Assembly (NCBI GenBank): GCA_964568735.1 | Contig: CAZMRF010000003.1 | Coordinates: 36,454-100,453, forward strand | Length of the DNA: 64,000 bases | From: an uncultured Acidobacteriota bacterium | Lineage (GTDB): Bacteria > Acidobacteriota > Polarisedimenticolia > JACPZX01 | Reading direction: 5' to 3' | Part shown: one piece after another, positions 1-40,233 of the stretch | Numbering within the stretch: position 1 is the first letter of the stretch | How the letters are laid out: every line of letters begins with the position of its first letter | Translations under genes and position numbers: made by a program | Notes under the pieces: generated by a model | Told to the model about the DNA's origin: nothing | Databases searched by the model: none | Seen by the model: only the letters and a program-made list of their open reading frames with translations

Positions 1-584
1 CCGATGGCCGCCTGAACCGCGGGGAGGAGGGACGACATGCGGATGAACCCCTCACCGGGATCCACGCTCCCCGCGCCGCTTGCGGCAAGCTCCGTGGCGG
101 CGGTGTCGAAGTCGTCGCCCCGCGCCGCCCGGGCTGCGAGCTGGTCGGCGCCGGCCCTGGTGGCGAAGGCCGCCGTGCGGATGCTGACCTCGACGGTCAT
201 GGCGTTCGCCATCGCCTCGACTTGTTTCGGATCGGGTTTCACCCCTCCGACCCGGCTTGCGAACAGGCCGTCCCGGAGGGTATCGCGCTCGAAGACGCCC
301 ATTCGATCGCGCACCTCGAGGGTCTTCTCGAGGCCCATCCGGTACCCTTCCTGGATGGCGAGCTCGACGCCGATCATCCGCTCGAGCGCCTTGCCCGCTC
401 CGTCCGTGGGGGGCGCGGCTCCGCTCCCTCCGCGGACCTTGCTCAGCGGGACAGGCTCGCCGTTGACGGTGGCGAGGACGGGGTCGGAGGAACGGGCTGG
501 CGCGGCGGCAACCGCCGTGAGAATCGACGCGCAGACGACGAGCACCCGGGTCGCGAGGACCCGGACGGAGAGGGGACGTGTCAT
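1..584 (-). CDS. SurA/PrsA-like periplasmic chaperone (parvulin PPIase family), 5' part only; the 3' end lies beyond the window start
   Basis: Minus-strand ATG at 582-584 (overlaps stop of upstream gene as ATGA/TCATG). Translates to MTRPLSVRVLATRVLVVCASILTAVAAAP...ATVNGEPVPLSKV...; signal peptide plus the 'VNGEPI'-type SurA N-domain motif. Not in ORF track because no stop falls in the window. Confidence 0.5.
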   Translation of the reverse strand, partial: MTRPLSVRVLATRVLVVCASILTAVAAAPARSSDPVLATVNGEPVPLSKVRGGSGAAPPTDGAGKALERMIGVELAIQEGYRMGLEKTLEVRDRMGVFERDTLRDGLFASRVGGVKPDPKQVEAMANAMTVEVSIRTAAFATRAGADQLAARAARGDDFDTAATELAASGAGSVDPGEGFIRMSSLLPAVQAAI

Positions 585-1756
585 GGGTTGTTTCCCTTGT
601 TGCCGGCGGCCTCTTGCGGGAGCCGGCGCGATCGGAGCTCTTGCTCGAGCTCCTCGACGGCACCCCGGACGAGCCCGGAGGTCAGCGTGACGGAGGAGCG
701 GATGCGGGAGACCCCGAACACTCCGACCCGGTCGTCTCCGCGGCCGAAGCTGAACGATGTCCAGACGGCCTGGCGCGTACGGACGTCGATGGCGCGGGCC
801 GAGAATCCCAGGAACGGCGTTCCGGGGGCGGATCCCATCGCCTCGTAGTCGGTCACACGGCCGGAGACGACCAGATCCAGGTCGAGAAGCGCGCCCAGGG
901 CATCGACCTGCGGCAGCGACGGACCGCCTTCCTGGATCACCCGGGCATCGAGAAGCGCCTCGCGGACCACTCCGGGCTCGAGCACCTCCATGTTGCCCGC
1001 GGCCATGAGCCATCTCACGAACTGGGATGTGACGTTCTCCCCAGCGTCTCGCCACGCCTCATCCGCGACGAAGGGCAGGACCGCCACGCGGGGGGTACGG
1101 AGGGAGGCTGCGGCCGCGGCCCAGCCCGGATCGACGACGAAGCTGCCGGGCCGGAATCTCCTCGGCACGCGTGCCCGATCCTCCGTCCCGGAGGCCCGGC
1201 CCAGGGCGGCGAGAGATTCGGCAATCTCCTCCGACGCGAGCTGGATCAGGACTTCGGCGGAGGTGACCACGCCCAGCCCGAACGCCCCCGGCCGCTCGTG
1301 ACCGTGGTGGGCGCTCGAGTCCATCCAGGTCAGCGGTGCTTCGGGGACGGCCGCGACCCAGCGGGCGGTGAGCGCGAACCGCGGCGGATCCACGGTCTCC
1401 CAGTCGTCCACCGAGCTCAGGAGGATTCCTTCGACGTTCGTCTCTGCGCCGATCGCGCCGGCCGTCTCGCCCGAGATCCCTCCCGTGTACCGGATCCGGT
1501 GCCTGCGGAAGAACTCCTCGAGCTCGGTCCGCGGAAGCAAGGCGAAGCCCTGGGCCGCCAGGGACTCCTCGAGGGCCGCCTGGACCTGCTCGACGGGGGC
1601 CGACCGCCCCGACCGGTCCACCGGGGGGAAGACCGCGACGCGTGAGCCGTCGGCGCCGAGGGCGGCAGGCGACGCCGCGCACAGCCACACTGTCGCGGCG
1701 AGCCCGAGCAGCACCCGTTCAGCCGAAAAGCGAGTCGAGAAGATCGCGAACGGCAT
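581..1756 (-). CDS. Lipoprotein/periplasmic protein with two tandem CsgG/LpoB-like domains (each with a 'VAV(F/L)PPV / VAVLPF' motif)
   Basis: 391-aa ORF. N-terminal signal sequence. Motif 'RVAVFPPVDRSG' near residue 40 and 'RVAVLPFVADEAW' near residue 215 indicate an internal duplication of the domain found in CsgG/LpoB/DUF799-type lipoproteins. 38-nt overlap with the upstream paralog. Confidence 0.65.
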   Translation of the reverse strand: MPFAIFSTRFSAERVLLGLAATVWLCAASPAALGADGSRVAVFPPVDRSGRSAPVEQVQAALEESLAAQGFALLPRTELEEFFRRHRIRYTGGISGETAGAIGAETNVEGILLSSVDDWETVDPPRFALTARWVAAVPEAPLTWMDSSAHHGHERPGAFGLGVVTSAEVLIQLASEEIAESLAALGRASGTEDRARVPRRFRPGSFVVDPGWAAAAASLRTPRVAVLPFVADEAWRDAGENVTSQFVRWLMAAGNMEVLEPGVVREALLDARVIQEGGPSLPQVDALGALLDLDLVVSGRVTDYEAMGSAPGTPFLGFSARAIDVRTRQAVWTSFSFGRGDDRVGVFGVSRIRSSVTLTSGLVRGAVEELEQELRSRRLPQEAAGNKGNNP

Positions 1757-2300
1757 CGGCCGTCACCTGGTCCATGGGCTGGCCGCCTCCTCCGAAGAGG
1801 CGGTCGGCGGCGTCCACGCCGCCGCGGGTGGCGGAAGCGCTCCAGACCACCTTGCCCGTCTGGGTCTCCATCATCTGGAGGCTCAGCGAGACCACTCCCG
1901 CGGAGCTGCTCCCTGAGCGCACCTCTCCGTACTCGCGGACCACCCCGGTGATCACCGCGTCCACGCCGACCACTTTCCCGAGGTTCACCACCTCCTCGGC
2001 GGTCGGCATGGTCGGGCTCGCCACGGAGGCGCGGTCGATGCCGCGGGCGACCTCTCCAGGCGGGATCACGTAGGACGACCCGGTCGCCTGCATCATCGTC
2101 GTGAAGACGTCCCGGACTCTCTCCGCGGCCGAGGTGGCGGTCGTCAAGTTCTCGAACGGCAACACGGCCACCTTCTGGACGAGGCTGAAGTCCATCCTGG
2201 GATCACGATAGGTCACCTCGGCGGACCTCTTTCCAGCGCACGCCGGCGTCAGGGCGACGAACGCGAGCATCGCGACGCCGACAGCCTCGAGAAGCTTCAT
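1719..2300 (-). CDS. Small lipoprotein, single CsgG/LpoB/DUF799-like domain ('KVAVLPFENLT')
   Basis: 193 aa. Lipobox-like 'LTPACAGK' after a hydrophobic signal. 'VAVLPFEN' motif. ATG 12 nt downstream of the beta-barrel gene stop. Confidence 0.7.
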   Translation of the reverse strand: MKLLEAVGVAMLAFVALTPACAGKRSAEVTYRDPRMDFSLVQKVAVLPFENLTTATSAAERVRDVFTTMMQATGSSYVIPPGEVARGIDRASVASPTMPTAEEVVNLGKVVGVDAVITGVVREYGEVRSGSSSAGVVSLSLQMMETQTGKVVWSASATRGGVDAADRLFGGGGQPMDQVTADAVRDLLDSLFG

Positions 2301-2312
2301 GTTTGGGACCTC

Positions 2313-4481
2313 CTAGAACCCGAGCCGGAGCGTCGATGTGACGATGTCGTCCTGCAGCCGGGAGATGTCCGTTTCGCGGGTCAGCGCCTGGTAGGCGATC
2401 TCGAAATAGGAGCGGGGGTTGATGTTCCACCTCACGAAGGGGACGAACGACGTGTCGACCTCGTCCAGATCGGAGTACCTGGTCTCGTTGTAGGAAACGT
2501 TCACCTGGAGGGCTCCCCCTGGAAAGGGCGACCAGCTGCACGCGAAGGTGTCGACCGTGCGATCGGGCTCGCTCGTTCGCGCTTCAATGCGTCGGGAGCC
2601 GTACAAATATATTGCTGCGAGCGGACTGTAGGCAACGGCGGCCTCCGCGCTCCTGGTCCTGTCCTCGACGTTCGGGACGCCATCGGTGTAGATCGTCGCG
2701 TTCCGGTCGTCGTAGCGAAGGGTGACCGTCACGCTGCGGTAGGGAATCAGGGTGGCACCGGCGCCGACCAGCAGGGCTTCGTTGGTGGAGCCGTCTTCGA
2801 TCTCGCCGTACGATGTCCCCACGAGGAAGTTCAGATCCACGCCCTCGTAGACGAGGGCGGTCGTGTCGAAGTTCACCGCCCGGTTCTTCGTGGTGATCCC
2901 GTCGGTCTCGTTCGCGTAGCCGCTCAGGATCAGCGAGTGTCTCAAGGTCTCGAACGGGTTGGCCGTGACCGCCGCGGAGTAGACGTACGCCGTACGCTCG
3001 CGATCGCTGTCGAGCCCGTCCTCGCGGGCGACCCGGGCGCTCGCCCCCCAGACCCGGTCGAATTGGTGCCGGGCGGAGAGGCCGTTCGAGAGCGTCCAGC
3101 TCGTGGGGCTCTGCGTGGAGCTCACGAGCGAGTAGGTCGTCTCGTAATAGAGCCCCGGGCGCTCCAGGATCCGGAACCGGGAGCTGGCGTTCGCCAGGTT
3201 CCGCGTGTCGGAGACCGTCTCCTCGAACGTGTTCGTCGCCTGTGCGAGCAACGGCTCGAGCTCGGTGACGAGGATGGTGGGAAACGAGCTCGCGTTGGGC
3301 ACCGTCGGAGCCAGCGGGCTGACCACGACCTTCACGTATCGGGACATGACAGTGGCGAACCGCACCTCGAAGTTGTTGTCGAAGGGACCGAACGGCGCGG
3401 TGGGGATCACGGACGTCCTGGTCCAGAACTGCGCGTCGCTGCTCGTCCAGATCTCCCAGGTGAAGGTGCGGGCTATGTCGAAAGGGAGATTCCGATCGAT
3501 CCAGACGCGGAAGACGTTGACGTCGCGCATGACGCCCAGGTCGACGCCCATGTTCCGCGGGCGGTTGTCCCCGGCCGGGGGGATGAGACCCAGGTTGATC
3601 GAAGTCCCGACCAGCGTGTTGCCGTCCACGAGGAGAGGGGCCGGATTGAGGAGCCCCACGTCGGGCGTGTCGTCGAGCTCGAAGGAGCCGCCGACAGGGA
3701 AGACGGGAATGAGCAGCTCGCCGGTTCCCGACGACTCGATGTCGGTCTCCCGGTACGTGGTGTTCCAACTCCCCGAGATCTCCCAGCGGGAGTCGAAGTA
3801 GTTCTCTGAGAAGTACACCTGTCCGTTGTGAGTGGTCGTGTGGAACGTCGTTCCCTCGGCCTGATCCTCGATCCGTTCCAGTGATCCCCGGTAGTAGAGC
3901 CTCGTCGACTCGATGGGCCTGTACTCGGACGTGAGCCGCAGGGCGTCCTCGGTCCGATCCACGAGATCCTGGGAGCCGTCGCGATCGACGACATGGGAGG
4001 CCTCGAGGCGCATCGAGGGCAGCTCGACCGGATACCAGCCCAGGGTGCCGAGGAACGTGTCGCGAGTCAGGCGGAACTCGGCGAGGTCGTCGGTCTGCGA
4101 GGTCTCTTCGTTGCGATCCCAGCCGATGTCCCCGAGCACCAGGGGGGACCGGAGCGTGAGCCGCAGGAACGGCCGGAACCGCGTGAACTCCGACTCCTGC
4201 TCGAACCCGAGCTGCTCGATCGTGTCGTCGAAATGCTCGTAGAACATCCCCGCCTGGGCATGGAGGTAGGGGAAGAGCCGGCGGCTCCAGAGCAGATTCG
4301 CGCGGGGCCGCAGCGACGTCGTGTCCGTCTCGGTGTCCGGCAACCCGTCGATCTCGTTCCTGGAGGAGGAAGAGTTGCCCGACAGCTCCACGTAGCCGCT
4401 CAGGTCGTCTGCGAGGGCCTGGCTCGTCACGCCCGCCAGGATCGCTCCGGCGAGCGCGAGCCGGCCGGCGGAAGATCTCAA
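2313..4481 (-). CDS. Large outer-membrane beta-barrel protein (722 aa); possible MtrB/PioB-like porin
   Basis: Signal peptide (RSSAGRLALAGAILAGVTSQALA). Alternating amphipathic beta-strand character. C-terminal '...TLRLGF' with terminal Phe typical of OM beta-barrels. TTG start overlapping the YVTN stop (TTGA). Confidence 0.7.
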   Translation of the reverse strand: MRSSAGRLALAGAILAGVTSQALADDLSGYVELSGNSSSSRNEIDGLPDTETDTTSLRPRANLLWSRRLFPYLHAQAGMFYEHFDDTIEQLGFEQESEFTRFRPFLRLTLRSPLVLGDIGWDRNEETSQTDDLAEFRLTRDTFLGTLGWYPVELPSMRLEASHVVDRDGSQDLVDRTEDALRLTSEYRPIESTRLYYRGSLERIEDQAEGTTFHTTTHNGQVYFSENYFDSRWEISGSWNTTYRETDIESSGTGELLIPVFPVGGSFELDDTPDVGLLNPAPLLVDGNTLVGTSINLGLIPPAGDNRPRNMGVDLGVMRDVNVFRVWIDRNLPFDIARTFTWEIWTSSDAQFWTRTSVIPTAPFGPFDNNFEVRFATVMSRYVKVVVSPLAPTVPNASSFPTILVTELEPLLAQATNTFEETVSDTRNLANASSRFRILERPGLYYETTYSLVSSTQSPTSWTLSNGLSARHQFDRVWGASARVAREDGLDSDRERTAYVYSAAVTANPFETLRHSLILSGYANETDGITTKNRAVNFDTTALVYEGVDLNFLVGTSYGEIEDGSTNEALLVGAGATLIPYRSVTVTLRYDDRNATIYTDGVPNVEDRTRSAEAAVAYSPLAAIYLYGSRRIEARTSEPDRTVDTFACSWSPFPGGALQVNVSYNETRYSDLDEVDTSFVPFVRWNINPRSYFEIAYQALTRETDISRLQDDIVTSTLRLGF

Positions 4482-5905
4482 GGACCGCTGCCCTGCACGA
4501 ACTGCAGCGCGGCGGGGTCGGCGCCCAGGGGTGTGCGCGTGACCGTGCCGCTCCCCACCAGGCCCACGATCCGGACTTCCGCAGGGTCGCGGAGGAGGAT
4601 GCCGAGCCCGTTCCCCTCCGCTTCGATCGACAGCCAGGCGACCTCCCCGGGCACCGGGATCTCCTCGACCGGGAGGAAGGAGGAGGGATCGAAGATCTCG
4701 ATCCGGCCCGCCCGGGCCCGGGCCAGGAAGATCCGGCCGCTCCTGGGATCGACCTCGAGGGCCCGGGCGCCTGGACCGACGTAGACGCGCCGCTCCACGG
4801 CGAGGGTGCGGGAGTCCACCACGGTCAGATAGGGCGACTCCTCCTGCGCCACGAGAATCCGCTCGCCGTTCCTCCCCGAGAAGCGGGCCCGCAGCGCCCC
4901 GGCGTCTACGGTGACCGCGCCGACCGGGGTTCGCGAGGAGACCGAGAGGACCGTGATCGTGCTCGACCGCTCCGCCAGCACGAAGACGCGCCGGCCGTCG
5001 CGATCCATGAGGAGCGAGACAGGCCGCCCCGCCACCGGGACGCGCTCGAGCTCGGTCGCTGCGAGCGGATCCACGAAGCTCACGGTGTCGGAACCGGGGT
5101 TCGCGACGACGAGGGTCCGGCCGTCCGGAGTCAGCGTCACCTCCCGCGGCGAGTCCCCGGCGCGGAGGGAGATCTGCTCACGGACGCGTCCTTCGAGCAG
5201 GTCCAGCACCGCGACCGAGTCGTCCCCCGAGACCGCCACGTAGGCGCGGAGCCGCTCCGAGTCGAGCGCGAGACCGGCTGGATTCCGGCCGACCGGAAGG
5301 AGCATCGCGAGGGCTCCCGTCCGCTTGTCGAACAGCGCGACGGAGTCCCAGCCGCCGACCGATGCGAGGCCGATGAGCCCCGTCGTCGGGCGCGGCCGTG
5401 CACGCCCCTCGAACACGGGATCGAAACGATCCGGCGAATCCGGGCTCCAGGCGGAACGCAGGGTCAGGGCCAGGACCGTGCCGGAGCTGGGGCTCACGAC
5501 GAAGGGCGAGTCCACCCGGGTCGGCACGGAGGGGACTTCGAGATTCGAGGCTCCCTCGGGGCCGGGCCGCGTGGCGGAGAGGAAGGAGAGCTCGATGCCG
5601 GTGTAGGTTCCCGGAGGAGGCTCCCCTTCGAGCCACAGGCTCTCGTCGGGCGTCTCGTTGCCCGGTCTGCGCGAGGCAACGAGCTTCAAATCCACCGTCA
5701 CGCCGTCCTCGCGGCGCGCGACGGCCCGGGAGACCTGGAAGCGGACCCGCTGCGACGGCGCGGAGAGGTCCCGCAGGACCACGACGATCCCGGGGGGGCC
5801 TTGCGATGGCCGCGCGGCGAAAGCGCGCCCCCCTGCACCGGCGGCGGCGCAGCCGACGGTGACGGCGAGCGGGATAACGGCTGCCGCGAGCAGCGCCTGT
5901 CTCAT
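4478..5905 (-). CDS. YVTN-family beta-propeller repeat protein, secreted/lipoprotein
   Basis: Signal peptide with 'VTVGC'. Repeated about 40-aa units 'YVAVSGDDSVAVLDL', 'TLVVANPGSDTVSFVD', 'RVFVLAERSSTITVLSV', 'ILVAQEESPYLTVVD'. ATG at 5903-5905 (the ORF track used an upstream TTG at 5917). Confidence 0.75.
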   Translation of the reverse strand: MRQALLAAAVIPLAVTVGCAAAGAGGRAFAARPSQGPPGIVVVLRDLSAPSQRVRFQVSRAVARREDGVTVDLKLVASRRPGNETPDESLWLEGEPPPGTYTGIELSFLSATRPGPEGASNLEVPSVPTRVDSPFVVSPSSGTVLALTLRSAWSPDSPDRFDPVFEGRARPRPTTGLIGLASVGGWDSVALFDKRTGALAMLLPVGRNPAGLALDSERLRAYVAVSGDDSVAVLDLLEGRVREQISLRAGDSPREVTLTPDGRTLVVANPGSDTVSFVDPLAATELERVPVAGRPVSLLMDRDGRRVFVLAERSSTITVLSVSSRTPVGAVTVDAGALRARFSGRNGERILVAQEESPYLTVVDSRTLAVERRVYVGPGARALEVDPRSGRIFLARARAGRIEIFDPSSFLPVEEIPVPGEVAWLSIEAEGNGLGILLRDPAEVRIVGLVGSGTVTRTPLGADPAALQFVQGSGP

Positions 5906-5926
5906 CGTCCCGTCCAAGTCCGGCGG

Positions 5927-5932
5927 ATTATA
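5927..5932 (-). promoter_or_regulatory. Candidate sigma70-type -10 hexamer TATAAT about 22 nt upstream of the YVTN gene ATG
   Basis: Minus-strand reading 'cctcggTATAATccgccggacttggacgggacgATG'. Sits just downstream of the cytochrome terminator hairpin. Confidence 0.3.
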
Positions 5933-5944
5933 CCGAGGCCGCTA

Positions 5945-5980
5945 AAGGAAAAGGGGGCCGACATCCGCCGGCCCCCTTCA
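5945..5980 (-). terminator. Rho-independent terminator after the hexaheme cytochrome gene
   Basis: Minus-strand RNA GAAGGGGGCCG-GCGGAUGU-CGGCCCCCUU followed by UUCCUUU: perfect 10-bp GC-rich stem (5951-5960 / 5969-5978), 8-nt loop, U-rich tail. About 40 nt after the cytochrome stop codon. Confidence 0.55.
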
Positions 5981-6017
5981 GGAGCACACCCGGACGAGGT
6001 CCGGGAAACTCAGGTGA

Positions 6018-7292
6018 CTAGTCCTTCGCGTGGCACTTGTTGCAGAGCACGCGCTGATACGACGCGAACGTGGTCACCGGGCGGTCGTAGTAGGCCGCCT
6101 GGGTCTCCGACGCCAGCCGACCCCGAGCGAACTGCGGGACGGTCGGAGTCGTGTCGGTGCCGGGATAGAGGCTGTTGTAGGTCATGAACTCGCCTTCGAT
6201 GTTCCAGCGCAGCGCGTATTCCCAGCCGGAGGCATGCGCGCGGTGACAGGAGAGGCAGGAGACCTGGTCGTTCGTCGACGGGCCGCCGAGCTGCGAGTTG
6301 TCGTTTCTCGCGAGCGGGGCGAGGACGGTGGCGTAGTCGCCGCTGTTCTTCACGAACGGAACGAGCGAGGTGAACGACGACCCGGCCGATCCGGTCATGT
6401 CGCCGGTCTTCACGTACTGCTCGTAGATGGTCGCGATCGTGGAGTCGAGGTCCTCGTCCGTAGGGTGGACGTAGTTCCCGCTCGAGTGCATGTCGGGATG
6501 GCAGGTTCCGCACCAGTTGCCCCAGGTGACGTGGCCGGGGTCGGAGGAGCGGCCGTAGGACGTGCGCGTCTGCGTCACGGCCTCCGTCCTGTTGTAGGTG
6601 CTGGGCACCTTCGCGGCGGGGACGCCGGCGAAGGTGACGCCGTCCTTGGTGTAGCCGGCGCCCGCGAGGAGGCGATAGACGCCGACCGCCGTGGTGCTGT
6701 TGGGCTCGTTATTCGTGGGGTTGTTGGGGTCGTAGTAGGAGCCCGAGGCGCGGATCGGACCGCCGGTCTTCGAGATGGCGCCGGTGTTCAGACGGCGGTA
6801 CTGGCCGTGCGGATCGTGGCAGCTGTTGCAGGCAAGCTGGCTCGACGGGAATCCGCTGCCGCCCGGTGCGTTTGCGTTCGTGCCATCCACCGAGTATCCG
6901 AAATCGACCGCGATGATGTTGTGGCCGTGGGTGTCGCCATCCTCGTTCGTCGTCGTGCCGCGAACGGTGAAGGAGTAGTCCTTCTTGATCCAGCCGAAGT
7001 CTCCGCCCGGAGACCTCTGCAACGGGGCCTGGCCTGCGCCGAGGCTGCCCGGGGCGGTGCTGATGTGATATGAGCTGGGACCGGTGTCGTTGGCGTTCTG
7101 GTGGCAGGTCAGGCACGCCGAGCTCTGGTCGGTCCCGACCAGCAGGAACTTTCCTCCTGCCATCGGGTTGTGCATGCTGTGGCAGCCGCTGCACTCCGCG
7201 ACGCCGCCTGAGTGGAACGCGTACGCGTTGCCGGCAAAAGCAGCGAGGGCCATCACCGCGAGCGCCAGCGCCCCCATTCTCAACGTCCTCAT
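6018..7292 (-). CDS. Secreted hexaheme c-type cytochrome
   Basis: Six CxxCH motifs (CSGCH, CLTCH, CNSCH, CGTCH, CLSCH, CNKCH). N-terminal signal peptide (ALALAVMALAAFAGNAYA). GAGGAGG RBS 5 nt upstream of ATG at 7290-7292. Confidence 0.85.
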   Translation of the reverse strand: MRTLRMGALALAVMALAAFAGNAYAFHSGGVAECSGCHSMHNPMAGGKFLLVGTDQSSACLTCHQNANDTGPSSYHISTAPGSLGAGQAPLQRSPGGDFGWIKKDYSFTVRGTTTNEDGDTHGHNIIAVDFGYSVDGTNANAPGGSGFPSSQLACNSCHDPHGQYRRLNTGAISKTGGPIRASGSYYDPNNPTNNEPNSTTAVGVYRLLAGAGYTKDGVTFAGVPAAKVPSTYNRTEAVTQTRTSYGRSSDPGHVTWGNWCGTCHPDMHSSGNYVHPTDEDLDSTIATIYEQYVKTGDMTGSAGSSFTSLVPFVKNSGDYATVLAPLARNDNSQLGGPSTNDQVSCLSCHRAHASGWEYALRWNIEGEFMTYNSLYPGTDTTPTVPQFARGRLASETQAAYYDRPVTTFASYQRVLCNKCHAKD

Positions 7293-7623
7293 TCAAGCCT
7301 CCTCATGGTGTGGTCGGCGGTGCGGTCCATCCTCGGGGTGCCCGAGACTCGCCTCCGAATGATTCCGATCCATGGTTTTGCAAGTCCGGTGCCCGGTCGA
7401 GGCCTTCCAGGAAGCTGCTGTTTAGGGGTCTTCGGGGCGCTTCGCGGGGGACGCGGGGCAGGGCGGTGGGCCAGATTCCACAGCCGCCTGAGTGATTCCG
7501 AGGTACTCACGGGAGGTGCCGCAGGCCGGATTCCGCCCCCAGCGGCTGTTTCCGGGAGGATGGCTAGCCTGGCGGCGCGGGCGCCTTCGAGAGGATGACG
7601 GCGGTCCCGGGGCGGAACGCGCT

Positions 7624-8573: not shown

Positions 8574-9608
8574 TCAGATCTCCGCGACGTCCTTGAGGGG
8601 GACCTGGTGCAGGCCGTCCGATCGCCAGCTCTGGAGGACCCTCATGTAGTTCACGCGCTCGAAGGCCGCGGGGTCGGGGCAGGACTGGGTTCGCATGCTG
8701 CCGCGGGCCTGCTCCAGGGACTCGTACTCGTGCTCCTCGAGCCAGTCGGTCATCTCGCGGCGGATGCGGGCGAGGCGATCGGGGCCGTGCCTGAGGAGTG
8801 CCGAGACGACCTGGACGCCATGGGCTCCGGCCATCACGGCCTTGATGGCGTCGAGGCCCGTGTGGATGCCGCCGCTCGCTCCCAGCGAGGACCAGATCCG
8901 GCCCGAGAGGATCGCGAGCCAGCGCAGCCGCAGCAGCAGCTCGGAGGGGTCCGACAGGCGCAGCGTCGGGACCACCTCGAGCTGCTCGGGGTCGATGTCG
9001 GGCTGGTAGAAGCGGTTGAAGAGCACGAGCCCGTCGGCGCCCGCGTCCTCCAGCTCGGAGGCGAAGTGGGCGAGCGCGGAGAAGTAGGGAGAGAGCTTCA
9101 CGGCCACGGGTATCCGGACGCTCTTCTTGACGGCCCGGAGCATCTCGAGGATGCGCCGCTCGATCTTCTCGGCGCTCTCGCTCTCCTGCGTCGCCATGAA
9201 GTAGACGTTCAGCTCCAACGCGTCCGCTCCCGCCTGCTCGATGAGGTGCGCGTACCTGAGCCACCCTCCCAGCGTGGTGCCGTTGAGAGATCCGATGACG
9301 GGAATCGACACCGTCTCCTTGATCTTTCGGATCTGCGCGAGGTACTCCTCGGGTCCCAGCGTGAACTCGTCGGGATCGGGGAAGTAGCTCGTCGCCTCGG
9401 CGAAGGACTCGGCATGCTCCTCCATCGCGAAGAGCGTCCCGACCTCCTCGCGCTTGATCTGCTCCTCGAAGAGGGAGTGCATCACGATGGCCGCGGCGCC
9501 CGCGTCCTCCAGCCTCTTCACCGTGTCGAGGTCGTCCACGAGCGGTGAGGCTCCCGGCATCAGGGGGTGGGGAAGCCTGAGCTTCAGATAGGTCGTCGAC
9601 AGGTCCAT
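8574..9608 (-). CDS. Dihydroorotate dehydrogenase-like (class 1 DHOD/DPD family) TIM-barrel flavoprotein
   Basis: 344 aa. Motifs 'IPVIGSLNG', 'VAVKLSPY', 'GADGLVLFNR', 'GASGGIHTGLDAIKAVMAGAHGVQVVSAL' typical of the DHOD/dihydropyrimidine dehydrogenase family. 12 nt downstream of the PFOR stop. Confidence 0.8.
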   Translation of the reverse strand: MDLSTTYLKLRLPHPLMPGASPLVDDLDTVKRLEDAGAAAIVMHSLFEEQIKREEVGTLFAMEEHAESFAEATSYFPDPDEFTLGPEEYLAQIRKIKETVSIPVIGSLNGTTLGGWLRYAHLIEQAGADALELNVYFMATQESESAEKIERRILEMLRAVKKSVRIPVAVKLSPYFSALAHFASELEDAGADGLVLFNRFYQPDIDPEQLEVVPTLRLSDPSELLLRLRWLAILSGRIWSSLGASGGIHTGLDAIKAVMAGAHGVQVVSALLRHGPDRLARIRREMTDWLEEHEYESLEQARGSMRTQSCPDPAAFERVNYMRVLQSWRSDGLHQVPLKDVAEI

Positions 9609-9620
9609 GGTCTCCCTCCC

Positions 9621-13250
<3,630 letters not shown>

Positions 13251-13925: not shown

Positions 13926-14837
13926 TCAGCCGGTACGTCCACGATCGAATCGGTTGCGAACGTCCGTTCGTAGCCGCTCGGCAAGGGGCTCGTTCCAGCC
14001 TGAGCTTGAGTCCTCGATCACCTGCAGCTCGAGCGCGCTGAGATCACGCAGAGAGGCGAATCGAGTCTCCACGGAGGCCAGGATCTCGTCAGGTCGAACC
14101 TCTTCGGAGATCCGAATGAGACGCCGCAGATCCTCCCACTCGTAGTCGCCACTGCGGAGCTTAGAGAGAAACGCTTCGGGGTCGAATGGGTCGCGTACCT
14201 GCCAGAGCTTGAGGACGACCAGGGAGCGGAGCAGGTCGCTGTCGAACGGGGTCGTCGCGAAGCGGTGGAGGTCATACAGGTCGCGGACCTTGGCCCGTTG
14301 GAAAGCCGCCCGCACCTTCTCGGCGATCATTTCGATGGCCTCCAGCGACCGAATCTCGAAGATGTCGAACTCGAGGTGAGGAAAATAGGGTTGGTGCTCC
14401 ATCGTCCTCATCACGACTGGCAGCGTGGGGTGCTCGCGAAGGCTGACTTGCAGGCGGAAACGGCCCGCCTCGTTCCACGCATGCCGGTAAAGCACGTCCC
14501 TGCCGAAGGAAGTATCGTCCTCGGTCTTATAGTAGTCGGTGAGGGTGAACGCTATGTCATGGTGCACCCGATTGAAAACCTCGACGATCTGGACGAGTAC
14601 GTCGTCGTCCTTCTGTTCTGTCGCGAGTGTGAAGTCGAGATCTTCAGAGAAGCGTCCCGCTGAGCCGAAGATCAGTTTACGCAGGCACGTCCCCCCCTTG
14701 AATGCGAGGTATTCCATGACTCCCGAGTCGACCATGGCGCGGAGCGCGTAGGTCAGAACAACGTCCCGCTCTGCGACGAGTTTGTCGCGCAGGCCGCTGT
14801 TGCGTGCATAGAGGTCTACGTACTTGTCAGCAATCAT
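13926..14837 (-). CDS. abiEii: AbiEii/AbiGii-family nucleotidyltransferase toxin (type IV TA)
   Basis: Start at ATG 14835-14837 (MIADKYVDLYARNSGLRDK...), overlapping the antitoxin stop. Conserved 'AFKGGTCL' nucleotidyltransferase motif. About 303 aa. The track ORF extends 42 codons further upstream into the antitoxin. Confidence 0.8.
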   Translation of the reverse strand: MIADKYVDLYARNSGLRDKLVAERDVVLTYALRAMVDSGVMEYLAFKGGTCLRKLIFGSAGRFSEDLDFTLATEQKDDDVLVQIVEVFNRVHHDIAFTLTDYYKTEDDTSFGRDVLYRHAWNEAGRFRLQVSLREHPTLPVVMRTMEHQPYFPHLEFDIFEIRSLEAIEMIAEKVRAAFQRAKVRDLYDLHRFATTPFDSDLLRSLVVLKLWQVRDPFDPEAFLSKLRSGDYEWEDLRRLIRISEEVRPDEILASVETRFASLRDLSALELQVIEDSSSGWNEPLAERLRTDVRNRFDRGRTG

Positions 14838-15712
14838 CGGCGGCGTGGCTTGCCGGGGAAGACCACGCGGCGGCGGGGCTTCTCCTCTTTCGGGAGCAGC
14901 ACGCCTCTTGGGACGTTCTCCACGACGTTCCACGGTCGCACCAGGTTTCCCGTCGTGCCCCATTTGCGGCGGGAGCCGAGCTGGATCTTGCTCTGAGGGC
15001 GGACGAGCGCGAGCAGGGCCGAGCGGAAGTTTTCAGGCACCTCGGCCCGATGGAGATCGAGGAAGTAGCCCAGCCGCTGCGCGAGTGCGGAGGCTCCCCA
15101 TCTGCGCGTGAGATCGATGAGTCCATCCCACGAGATGCGGGGGGTGGCGCGCGCCACAATCCGGGAGGTCTCACCGAGGCCCCCTGCGTATCGGGGCCGA
15201 TCGATTGCGTCGAGCAAGGCCCGCTCCAGGGTTGCCATCTGGACCGGATGCCCCAGGACATTGCTCTTCCCGAATCCGAAGAAGCGGCGCCTCGGGACGT
15301 ATACGAAGACATAGCGGCGCCCCTGGATGGGTTCCGGGCGCCGCCGCTCCTGGCAGGCGACGTAGATCTCGGCAAACGTCTGCTCGGTGAGGCCGTGATG
15401 AGTGCAGGCGGTGCCGAACGAGAAGAAGTAGGGACTGACGATCAGCGCCGCCGCGGCAAGGGGGTTCGTGTCGGCTACTCCTTCCCGGCCGCGGTCGGCG
15501 GGCACGAGCTGGTAGAGCCCGGCCCGCAAGCGCTCGAACCAGCCTTTCTTCACGAGCCGATGAGCCATGCTCCGGGCGTAGCTCTCCGACGCTCCGAGGG
15601 ACTTGCTCAGCTCGGTAAGAGTGATGGTCTTCTGCCCCCGCCACTCCAGGTCGAGAACAATTTTGGCTTCGTTCCTGGAGAGGGTCCGCTCGATGGTTGC
15701 TGATTTAGCCAT
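14834..15712 (-). CDS. abiEi: AbiEi-family antitoxin/transcriptional regulator (DUF4095-type wHTH N-domain)
   Basis: About 292 aa from ATG 15710-15712 (MAKSATIERTLSRNEAKIVLDLEW...); alternative TTG at 15733. 4-bp overlap with the toxin start; the antitoxin-then-toxin order is typical of AbiE. Confidence 0.75.
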   Translation of the reverse strand: MAKSATIERTLSRNEAKIVLDLEWRGQKTITLTELSKSLGASESYARSMAHRLVKKGWFERLRAGLYQLVPADRGREGVADTNPLAAAALIVSPYFFSFGTACTHHGLTEQTFAEIYVACQERRRPEPIQGRRYVFVYVPRRRFFGFGKSNVLGHPVQMATLERALLDAIDRPRYAGGLGETSRIVARATPRISWDGLIDLTRRWGASALAQRLGYFLDLHRAEVPENFRSALLALVRPQSKIQLGSRRKWGTTGNLVRPWNVVENVPRGVLLPKEEKPRRRVVFPGKPRRR

Positions 15713-15813
15713 TTGTTTTGATTTTACTAACAAATAGCAAATCCTGCAACCTGGCGGAAACGCCCTCGAATCACCTTCTGGAATGGCCTCCAGTGTAAAA
15801 GGATGGGGGGAGG

Positions 15814-27208: not shown

Positions 27209-40111
<12,903 letters not shown>

Positions 40112-40206
40112 GTGCGGGACCTCCATGGCCGGTCGCTGAGCCCAGGCGCGAGTGCGAGGCATCGCTCCCGTTGTGGGCCCGGCATGCGGAGCGTGGTGCA
40201 AGCCGG

Positions 40207-40233
40207 ATTGTACGACCAAATGAATGCGCTCAA
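40207..40233 (-). promoter_or_regulatory. Weak candidate sigma70 promoter for the giant gene (-35 TTGAGC, 15-nt spacer, -10 TACAAT)
   Basis: Minus-strand 'TTGAGCgcattcatttggtcgTACAATcc' in an AT-richer stretch about 100 nt upstream of ATG 40111. Spacer is short. Confidence 0.2.

Follow-up and report, generated by a model that had tools for sequence, protein, structure and literature searches.

The window analysed here is a 64,000-nucleotide stretch of a contig from an uncultured Acidobacteriota bacterium (CAZMRF010000003.1, positions 36,454 to 100,453), and its first 8568 nucleotides, of ~70% G+C, carry a run of genes, all on the minus strand, for a hexaheme cytochrome, two beta-propellers, a large outer-membrane beta-barrel, two PelC-like proteins, and the beginning of a probable prolyl isomerase (Table 1). 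To judge from sequence comparison and gene order, this region is probably the promoter-proximal part of an osc-type cluster for cytochrome-nanowire biogenesis in an acidobacterium. A preliminary description of positions 1-7292 had the genes and their coordinates right but counted seven where there are six; the seventh conserved gene, encoding the NHL-like propeller, lies just upstream. At the other end, the operon continues past the left edge of the window, where the isomerase gene is cut. Several of the genes interlock. The TGA stop of the YVTN propeller gene (D in the osc nomenclature) overlaps the TTG start of the 722-residue barrel gene (E) as ccTTGAga, as had been described; the genes for the 193-residue (F) and 391-residue (G) proteins overlap by 38 bp; and the junction between the latter and the isomerase gene (H) is an ATGA overlap. 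These D-E, F-G, and G-H stop/start overlaps indicate one operon, within which the 193-residue protein gene has an AGGAGG ribosome-binding site 8 nt upstream of its start.

Table 1. Features of the cytochrome locus in the order of transcription, with lengths (residues) of the modelled Geobacter sulfurreducens proteins, taken from the supplement of PMC13194489, beside those found here.
Feature	Position	Strand	Basis or remark	G. sulfurreducens / here
NHL-like beta-propeller, signal peptide, ~315 residues	7624-8568	minus	open reading frame; heads the conserved cluster, outside 1-7292	
Sigma-54-type -24/-12 element, candidate promoter	7379-7394	minus	GGGCACCGGACTTGCA; ~100 nt ahead of the ATG of the cytochrome gene	
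OmcS-family hexaheme c-type cytochrome, 424 residues	6018-7292	minus	OmcS homology; GSU2501/OscC position; presumed filament subunit	OscC 414/424
Intrinsic-terminator-like hairpin	~5944-5979	minus	UUUUCCUUU; 13-bp GC-rich stem, U-rich tail; after the cytochrome stop codon	
OscD-like YVTN 7-bladed beta-propeller lipoprotein, 479 residues	4478-5917	minus	TIGR02276, lipobox	OscD 473/479
OscE-like outer-membrane beta-barrel, 722 residues, ~30 strands (model)	2313-4481	minus	CBM32/discoidin-like insert, ~residues 270-403	OscE 701/722
OscF-like PelC/GNA1162-family lipoprotein, 193 residues	1719-2300	minus	PF05643, PelC homology	OscF 169/193
OscG-like protein, two tandem PelC-like alpha/beta domains, 391 residues	581-1756	minus	signal peptide; lipobox not canonical	OscG 367/391
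Probable OscH-like SurA/PpiD-type parvulin prolyl isomerase, 5' part, 194 codons	1-584	minus	orthologue homology; remainder off window	OscH 548/549 (orthologue in locus L004)

The osc (omcS-companion) cluster of G. sulfurreducens, GSU2501-GSU2493, was described by Shen et al. 2025 (Cell Chem Biol 32:239), as reported in PMC13194489 and PMC12977616, so that the term 'uncharacterised' in the preliminary description no longer applies. In G. sulfurreducens, as here, the genes follow one another as an OmcS-like hexaheme, OscD, a ~700-residue OscE, OscF, a ~370-390-residue OscG, and a ~550-residue OscH. The roles that PMC13194489 attributes to Shen et al. 2025 are folding for OscH, secretion for OscE/F/G, and morphology for OscD. 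The idea of an outer-membrane assembly or secretion complex, built around a large barrel with lipoprotein and chaperone partners, is sustained, and the gene set is conserved elsewhere, as described below. The window differs from G. sulfurreducens in having just one cytochrome gene, which occupies the GSU2501/OscC position, rather than an omcS/omcT pair, in the NHL propeller gene directly upstream, and in its acidobacterial host.

Geomobilimonas luticola provides the bridge between the two. According to published descriptions, this organism has a GSU2501-like gene alone, together with an eight-gene GSU2500-GSU2493 (oscD-K) 'nanowire secretion' block, and the same literature identifies GSU2495 as a 26-heme cytochrome. 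At the G. luticola locus (L042), exactly eight genes follow the OmcS-like gene: those for a propeller (476 residues), a barrel (745), a lipoprotein (201), a 394-residue protein, a parvulin isomerase (590), a 657-residue cytochrome with 26 CXXCH motifs, a 437-residue cytochrome with 16 CXXCH motifs, and a 315-residue NHL protein. These eight genes, with the 26-CXXCH cytochrome among them, match the published G. luticola osc block, and its D-H proteins in turn match the window by tblastn, with E-values between 1e-62 and 1e-14 and with order and strand preserved.

To place the arrangement in a wider setting, we scanned one genome per species with peptide patterns derived from a 21-sequence alignment, which yielded 78 loci (G. 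sulfurreducens was evidently missed), and compared the window proteins with these loci by tblastn, counting only loci with enough flanking DNA. The loci come from Acidobacteriota, Nitrospirota, Thermodesulfobacteriota (including cultured Geomonas, Geomobilimonas luticola, and Geotalea), Rokubacteria, and others. Order and strand were as in the window for the 193-residue protein in every locus counted (77/77), for the 479-residue propeller, directly upstream of the barrel, in 66/68, for the 391-residue protein in 69/72, for the cytochrome in 60/65, and for the NHL protein, encoded on the 5' side of the cytochrome gene, in 55/61. The arrangement as a whole is thus seen in about 60-77 of the 78 loci. 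Two distant metagenomic loci and the complete Anaeromyxobacter paludicola genome have the same gene order. Chance would hardly produce such an arrangement, since dozens of unrelated genomes share it, and the co-occurrence that the preliminary description left to be looked for is strong.

The two large cytochromes (26 and 16 CXXCH motifs) and the NHL protein of the G. luticola block have counterparts in 56-65 of 82 loci searched. In most other phyla, the oscI-K equivalents stand directly after oscH on the same strand, whereas in the closest, Polarisedimenticolia-like loci (L003-L005), the 26-heme, 16-heme, and NHL genes are inverted and lie a few kb past the isomerase gene, an inversion that would put the oscI-K equivalents off the window here. 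Taken by content and order of the genes, the cluster is a ten-gene unit, NHL-C-D-E-F-G-H-I-J-K, of near-invariant order in at least five phyla.

Some of these loci have peculiarities of their own. Some Acidobacteriota loci, among them L002 (12679-16605), L023, L027, and L031, have an additional ~3 kb between the genes for the F and G homologues; in L002 it encodes a 1308-residue Calx-beta protein, apparently fused to or replacing part of the G-type gene. Two contigs that carry 74-88%-identical copies, L067 (JBBSVS010000057.1) and L003 (DASROJ010000369.1), were deposited as 'Thermoplasmatota archaeon' and 'Patescibacteria group bacterium'; because they encode outer-membrane proteins, they are probably mis-binned.

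The cytochrome matches OmcS (PDB 6EF8/6NEF) at E=1.2e-109 in a phmmer search of PDB sequences. Its residues 26-424 correspond to positions 1-407 of the mature OmcS chain, with which it shares 54% identity over the full length. The signal peptide is predicted to be cleaved before FHSGG, and the resulting mature N-terminus, FHSGGVAEC, is the same in both proteins. In an alignment of the window protein, OmcS, and 62 cluster-linked homologues, the window cytochrome keeps the six CXXCH motifs as well as His2, 16, 63, 110, 147, 257, and 335 (OmcS numbering), all of which are kept in 91-100% of the aligned sequences; for the heme motifs and His16, the range is 97-100%. This set of residues is in keeping with six bis-His hemes. 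It differs from OmcS in loop lengths and in the absence of His53, His139, and His309, and is a presumed filament subunit. A DmsE-family model scores 28.8 bits on the protein, against a cutoff of 192.2.

OmcS filaments are stabilised in part by a histidine that each subunit contributes as ligand to a heme of its neighbour. This inter-subunit ligand is reported to be His16 (Wang et al. 2019), which is 98% conserved among the sequences aligned here. The conservation of this residue bears on the first alternative, that the cluster exports or displays on the surface an OmcS-like cytochrome that does not polymerise, the GSU2501-type protein being the ancestral cargo, filaments arising later with OmcS in Geobacter, and the product here being a soluble or surface-bound hexaheme. 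The position of the window gene, which is that of GSU2501, and an identity between OmcS and OscC of just ~48% speak for such a view; the full-length similarity to mature OmcS speaks against it, as does the retention of His16 and all heme ligands in 98% of the 64 homologues. The identities to OmcS also argue mildly against it, as OmcS is about equidistant from all of the cluster-linked homologues (a roughly uniform 40-61%) and no distinct 'non-wire' clade is seen. We regard this alternative as unlikely. An attempt to sort the homologues into 'OmcS-like' and 'GSU2501-like' clades by identity to OmcS gave no separation, with values of 40-61% throughout.

The secreted hexaheme cytochrome with a terminator of its own, as first described, has its six CXXCH motifs and signal peptide, and the intergenic region on its 3' side folds with a minimum free energy of -50.4 kcal/mol (z=-3.2) into the 13-bp hairpin, which a simple consensus terminator scan did not flag. 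Between this hairpin and the propeller gene lies a TATAAT box. On the 5' side, the GGCAC-N5-TTGC motif of the window recurs equally far from the gene in L003 and L004, its closest relatives, although the spacer bases differ there; it is found 5' of the cytochrome gene in 7/66 other loci, the background being 0.009 per 400 nt. This sigma-54-type element suggests that expression of the filament subunit may be RpoN-dependent in this lineage.

The propeller downstream of the cytochrome was correctly identified as a YVTN lipoprotein: it matches TIGR02276 (E=4e-16) and the Pfam families YNCE and Lactonase, has a lipobox (...VTVGC), is close to OscD (473 residues) in size, and shares 32% of its residues with the D protein of G. 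luticola. The NHL-like propeller at the head of the cluster is 39% identical to a 316-residue G. luticola protein with weak NHL and SGL matches in Pfam.

The 722-residue protein, whose C-terminus reads ...LRLGF, has relatives of 700-750 residues, some of them from Candidatus Polarisedimenticolia (Acidobacteriota), that are all named just 'hypothetical', and neither Pfam nor NCBIfam classifies it. These two collections give a single signal, a sub-threshold F5/8-type-C (discoidin/CBM32) match over residues 305-385, which recurs in 20/52 family members. The secondary-structure string of one AF2 model contains ~12 strands, then an insert of ~135 residues, then ~18 more strands, for a total of ~30; the insert would exit the barrel on the periplasmic side, as inferred from strand parity, and is the most conserved portion of the barrel family. 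The family comprises 1464 clusters at 50% identity, and its length is near-constant. The comparison values listed for the barrel are 16.8 for BtuB, 15.2 for SprA, 14.9 for MtrB, 14.0 for LptD, 13.6 for PelB, and 13.0 for PapC.

The preliminary description likened the barrel and the neighbouring cytochrome to the MtrAB/PioAB/Pcc conduits, in which a barrel sheathes a membrane-spanning multiheme cytochrome that passes electrons to the cell exterior, with no role in secretion. This analogy did not hold up. The MtrB_PioB model (PF11854) does not match the 722-residue protein at E<=1 and matches only one of the 52 family members, weakly (E=0.0025); the family profile found no PDB sequence at E<=1, MtrB included; and the cytochrome is an OmcS-family hexaheme rather than an MtrA-type decaheme, of which the block has none. 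The window cluster also adds PelC-like, propeller, and isomerase parts to what the conduits contain. We consider an MtrAB/Pcc-type conduit, for which there is little support, very unlikely.

Two other assignments of the barrel were tried and set aside: hidden Markov models for the plug domain and TonB_dep_Rec gave no grounds to place it among TonB-dependent receptors, and it has neither usher Pfam matches nor usher sequence similarity. The two outcomes that would have undone the preliminary view, a barrel confidently placed in the TonB receptor or usher families and a gene set without synteny elsewhere, were not encountered. The 722-residue barrel is a distinct family of its own, neither MtrB/PioB, TonB receptor, nor usher. 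The comparison with chaperone-usher systems (PapC/FimD) differs in its other parts as well: the chaperone here is a parvulin isomerase, not a PapD-like Ig-fold protein, and the subunits would join by heme-histidine coordination, not by donor-strand exchange.

The two proteins that follow the barrel had been taken for CsgG/LpoB-like lipoproteins, one single and one tandem-duplicated. The fold group and the single and duplicated domain arrangements stand, whereas assignment to the CsgG family does not, as the match to CsgG (PF03783) was below threshold and PelC fits better; the lipoprotein status of the 391-residue protein is unproven, as it has a signal peptide and lacks a canonical lipobox. 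The domains belong to the CsgG/LpoB/GNA1162/PelC fold group and are closest to PelC. The 193-residue protein matches the GNA1162-like family PF05643 (32 bits against a cutoff of 25.9) and PelC (E=1.6e-5 for 5T0Z and 7e-5 for 9H80_C), and it is the best-conserved protein of the cluster, with 50-88% identity across loci; among the best 120 of 3506 matches in a search with this protein, none is named Geobacter. The halves of the 391-residue protein are 26% identical to each other (E=0.003), and the C-terminal one shares 28% identity with the 193-residue protein (E=3e-7); PelC gives the best fold matches for the 391-residue protein.

In the Pel system, twelve PelC subunits sit as a ring on the periplasmic side of the PelB barrel (PMC12141448, PDB 9H80), and a PelC-like ring on OscE would, by analogy, be the simplest structural reading of the 'channel-like OscEFG'. 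The barrel-plus-PelC-like architecture is supported, with several departures from PelBC: the cargo would be a heme protein, not a polysaccharide, the modelled barrel is far larger (~30 strands) and unrelated in sequence, the PelC-like proteins are of two kinds, one with the domain duplicated in tandem, and pel biosynthesis genes are absent. That the locus is instead a PelBC-type exopolysaccharide export module with the cytochromes as mere neighbours, as the PelC homology of the two proteins, the 'PelC' label that one database source gives to a homologue of the smaller one, and the CBM32-like insert might intimate, has little in its favour and is highly improbable, given a conserved block with no glycosyltransferase or other pel gene, invariant cytochrome, propeller, and prolyl isomerase partners across 60-77 loci, and a modelled barrel of ~30 strands with no PelB-like sequence similarity.

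For the isomerase, the first 194 codons, which are what the window contains, gave no significant Pfam match and are 64-71% identical to L003, L004, and L006 (tblastn of loci). The full-length orthologue in L004 (549 residues, 64% identity) matches Rotamase_2 at E=8e-23 and, weakly, SurA_N_3; the 590-residue G. luticola H protein matches Rotamase_2 at E=1e-26.

Read as an osc-type cluster, the genes suggest a pathway that can be sketched as follows. The cytochrome would be exported by Sec and loaded with its six hemes in the periplasm, where the SurA-like isomerase, in the role published for OscH, would keep it competent for assembly. It may then pass through, or become anchored in, the wide OscE barrel, with rings of the PelC-like OscF and OscG proteins probably crowning the periplasmic mouth, as their folds and the placement of PelC on PelB suggest; the CBM32-like insert may serve as a plug or docking domain. 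Outside the cell, subunits would polymerise head to tail, the histidine that corresponds to His16 of OmcS ligating a neighbour's heme, as residue conservation alone would indicate. The propeller lipoprotein would modulate filament morphology, the role published for OscD, and the terminator hairpin after the subunit gene could leave subunit transcript in excess over transcripts of the machinery genes.

A further proposal, which we offer tentatively and hold to be somewhat short of an even chance, is that the GSU2501-type hexaheme is a true filament subunit and that OscE represents a structurally unsolved class of outer-membrane machine that exports or anchors a folded, heme-loaded polymer. In this joint proposal, the machine would have ~30 strands, a CBM32-like domain on the periplasmic side between strands 12 and 13, and heterologous PelC-like rings. 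Were it true, cytochrome nanowires would be an ancestral feature, common among Acidobacteriota, Nitrospirota, and their relatives in soil and sediment, rather than a Geobacter speciality.

Several points weigh against assigning the locus to nanowire biogenesis. The link to GSU2500-GSU2496 runs through G. luticola together with published descriptions, protein sizes, and secondary-structure content, and is in that sense indirect; the oscI-K equivalents lie outside the window; and both the strand count and the side on which the insert leaves the barrel rest on the secondary-structure string from a single AF2 model. The cytochrome occupies the GSU2501/OscC position, and no GSU2501-type protein is known to polymerise. 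In the literature, secretion via OscE is called a hypothesis, 'still speculative', even for Geobacter, and PMC13194489 notes that the physiological need for OmcS filaments is disputed.

With these points in mind, the locus suggests that an uncultured, probably Polarisedimenticolia-like lineage of acidobacteria is likely to produce conductive filaments of the OmcS type, which bears on the question of which soil and sediment organisms perform extracellular electron transfer. As the system was described in 2025 as widespread across phyla, the locus is a gain in annotation, not a discovery. What is added to the published picture is the ten-gene unit in at least five phyla, the PelC-like lipoprotein as its most conserved member, and the discoidin/CBM32-like insert of the barrel, and these three features are targets for work on the means by which a folded multiheme polymer traverses the outer membrane or is held there, a matter that the literature still treats as speculative.

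Directly upstream of the cluster, at 8574-13235 on the minus strand, are a dihydroorotate-dehydrogenase-like gene and a pyruvate:ferredoxin oxidoreductase; they mark the boundary of the cluster and point to an anaerobic lifestyle. Farther along the window, also on the minus strand, positions 27209-40219 hold an uninterrupted open reading frame of 4336 codons whose product has a CIS_tube match near the N-terminus, many MopE copper-binding motifs, RHS repeats, DUF6531, and, near the C-terminus, a Phage_base_V/VgrG-type OB domain. It may be a giant RHS or contractile-injection-associated protein, or it may consist of frames fused by the scarcity of stop codons in DNA of 70% G+C. Finally, an AbiEi/AbiEii toxin-antitoxin or abortive-infection pair is encoded at 13926-15733 on the minus strand (PADLOC; E=3e-64 for AbiEii and 2e-50 for AbiEi), where it sits in a local dip in G+C content to ~61-64%.

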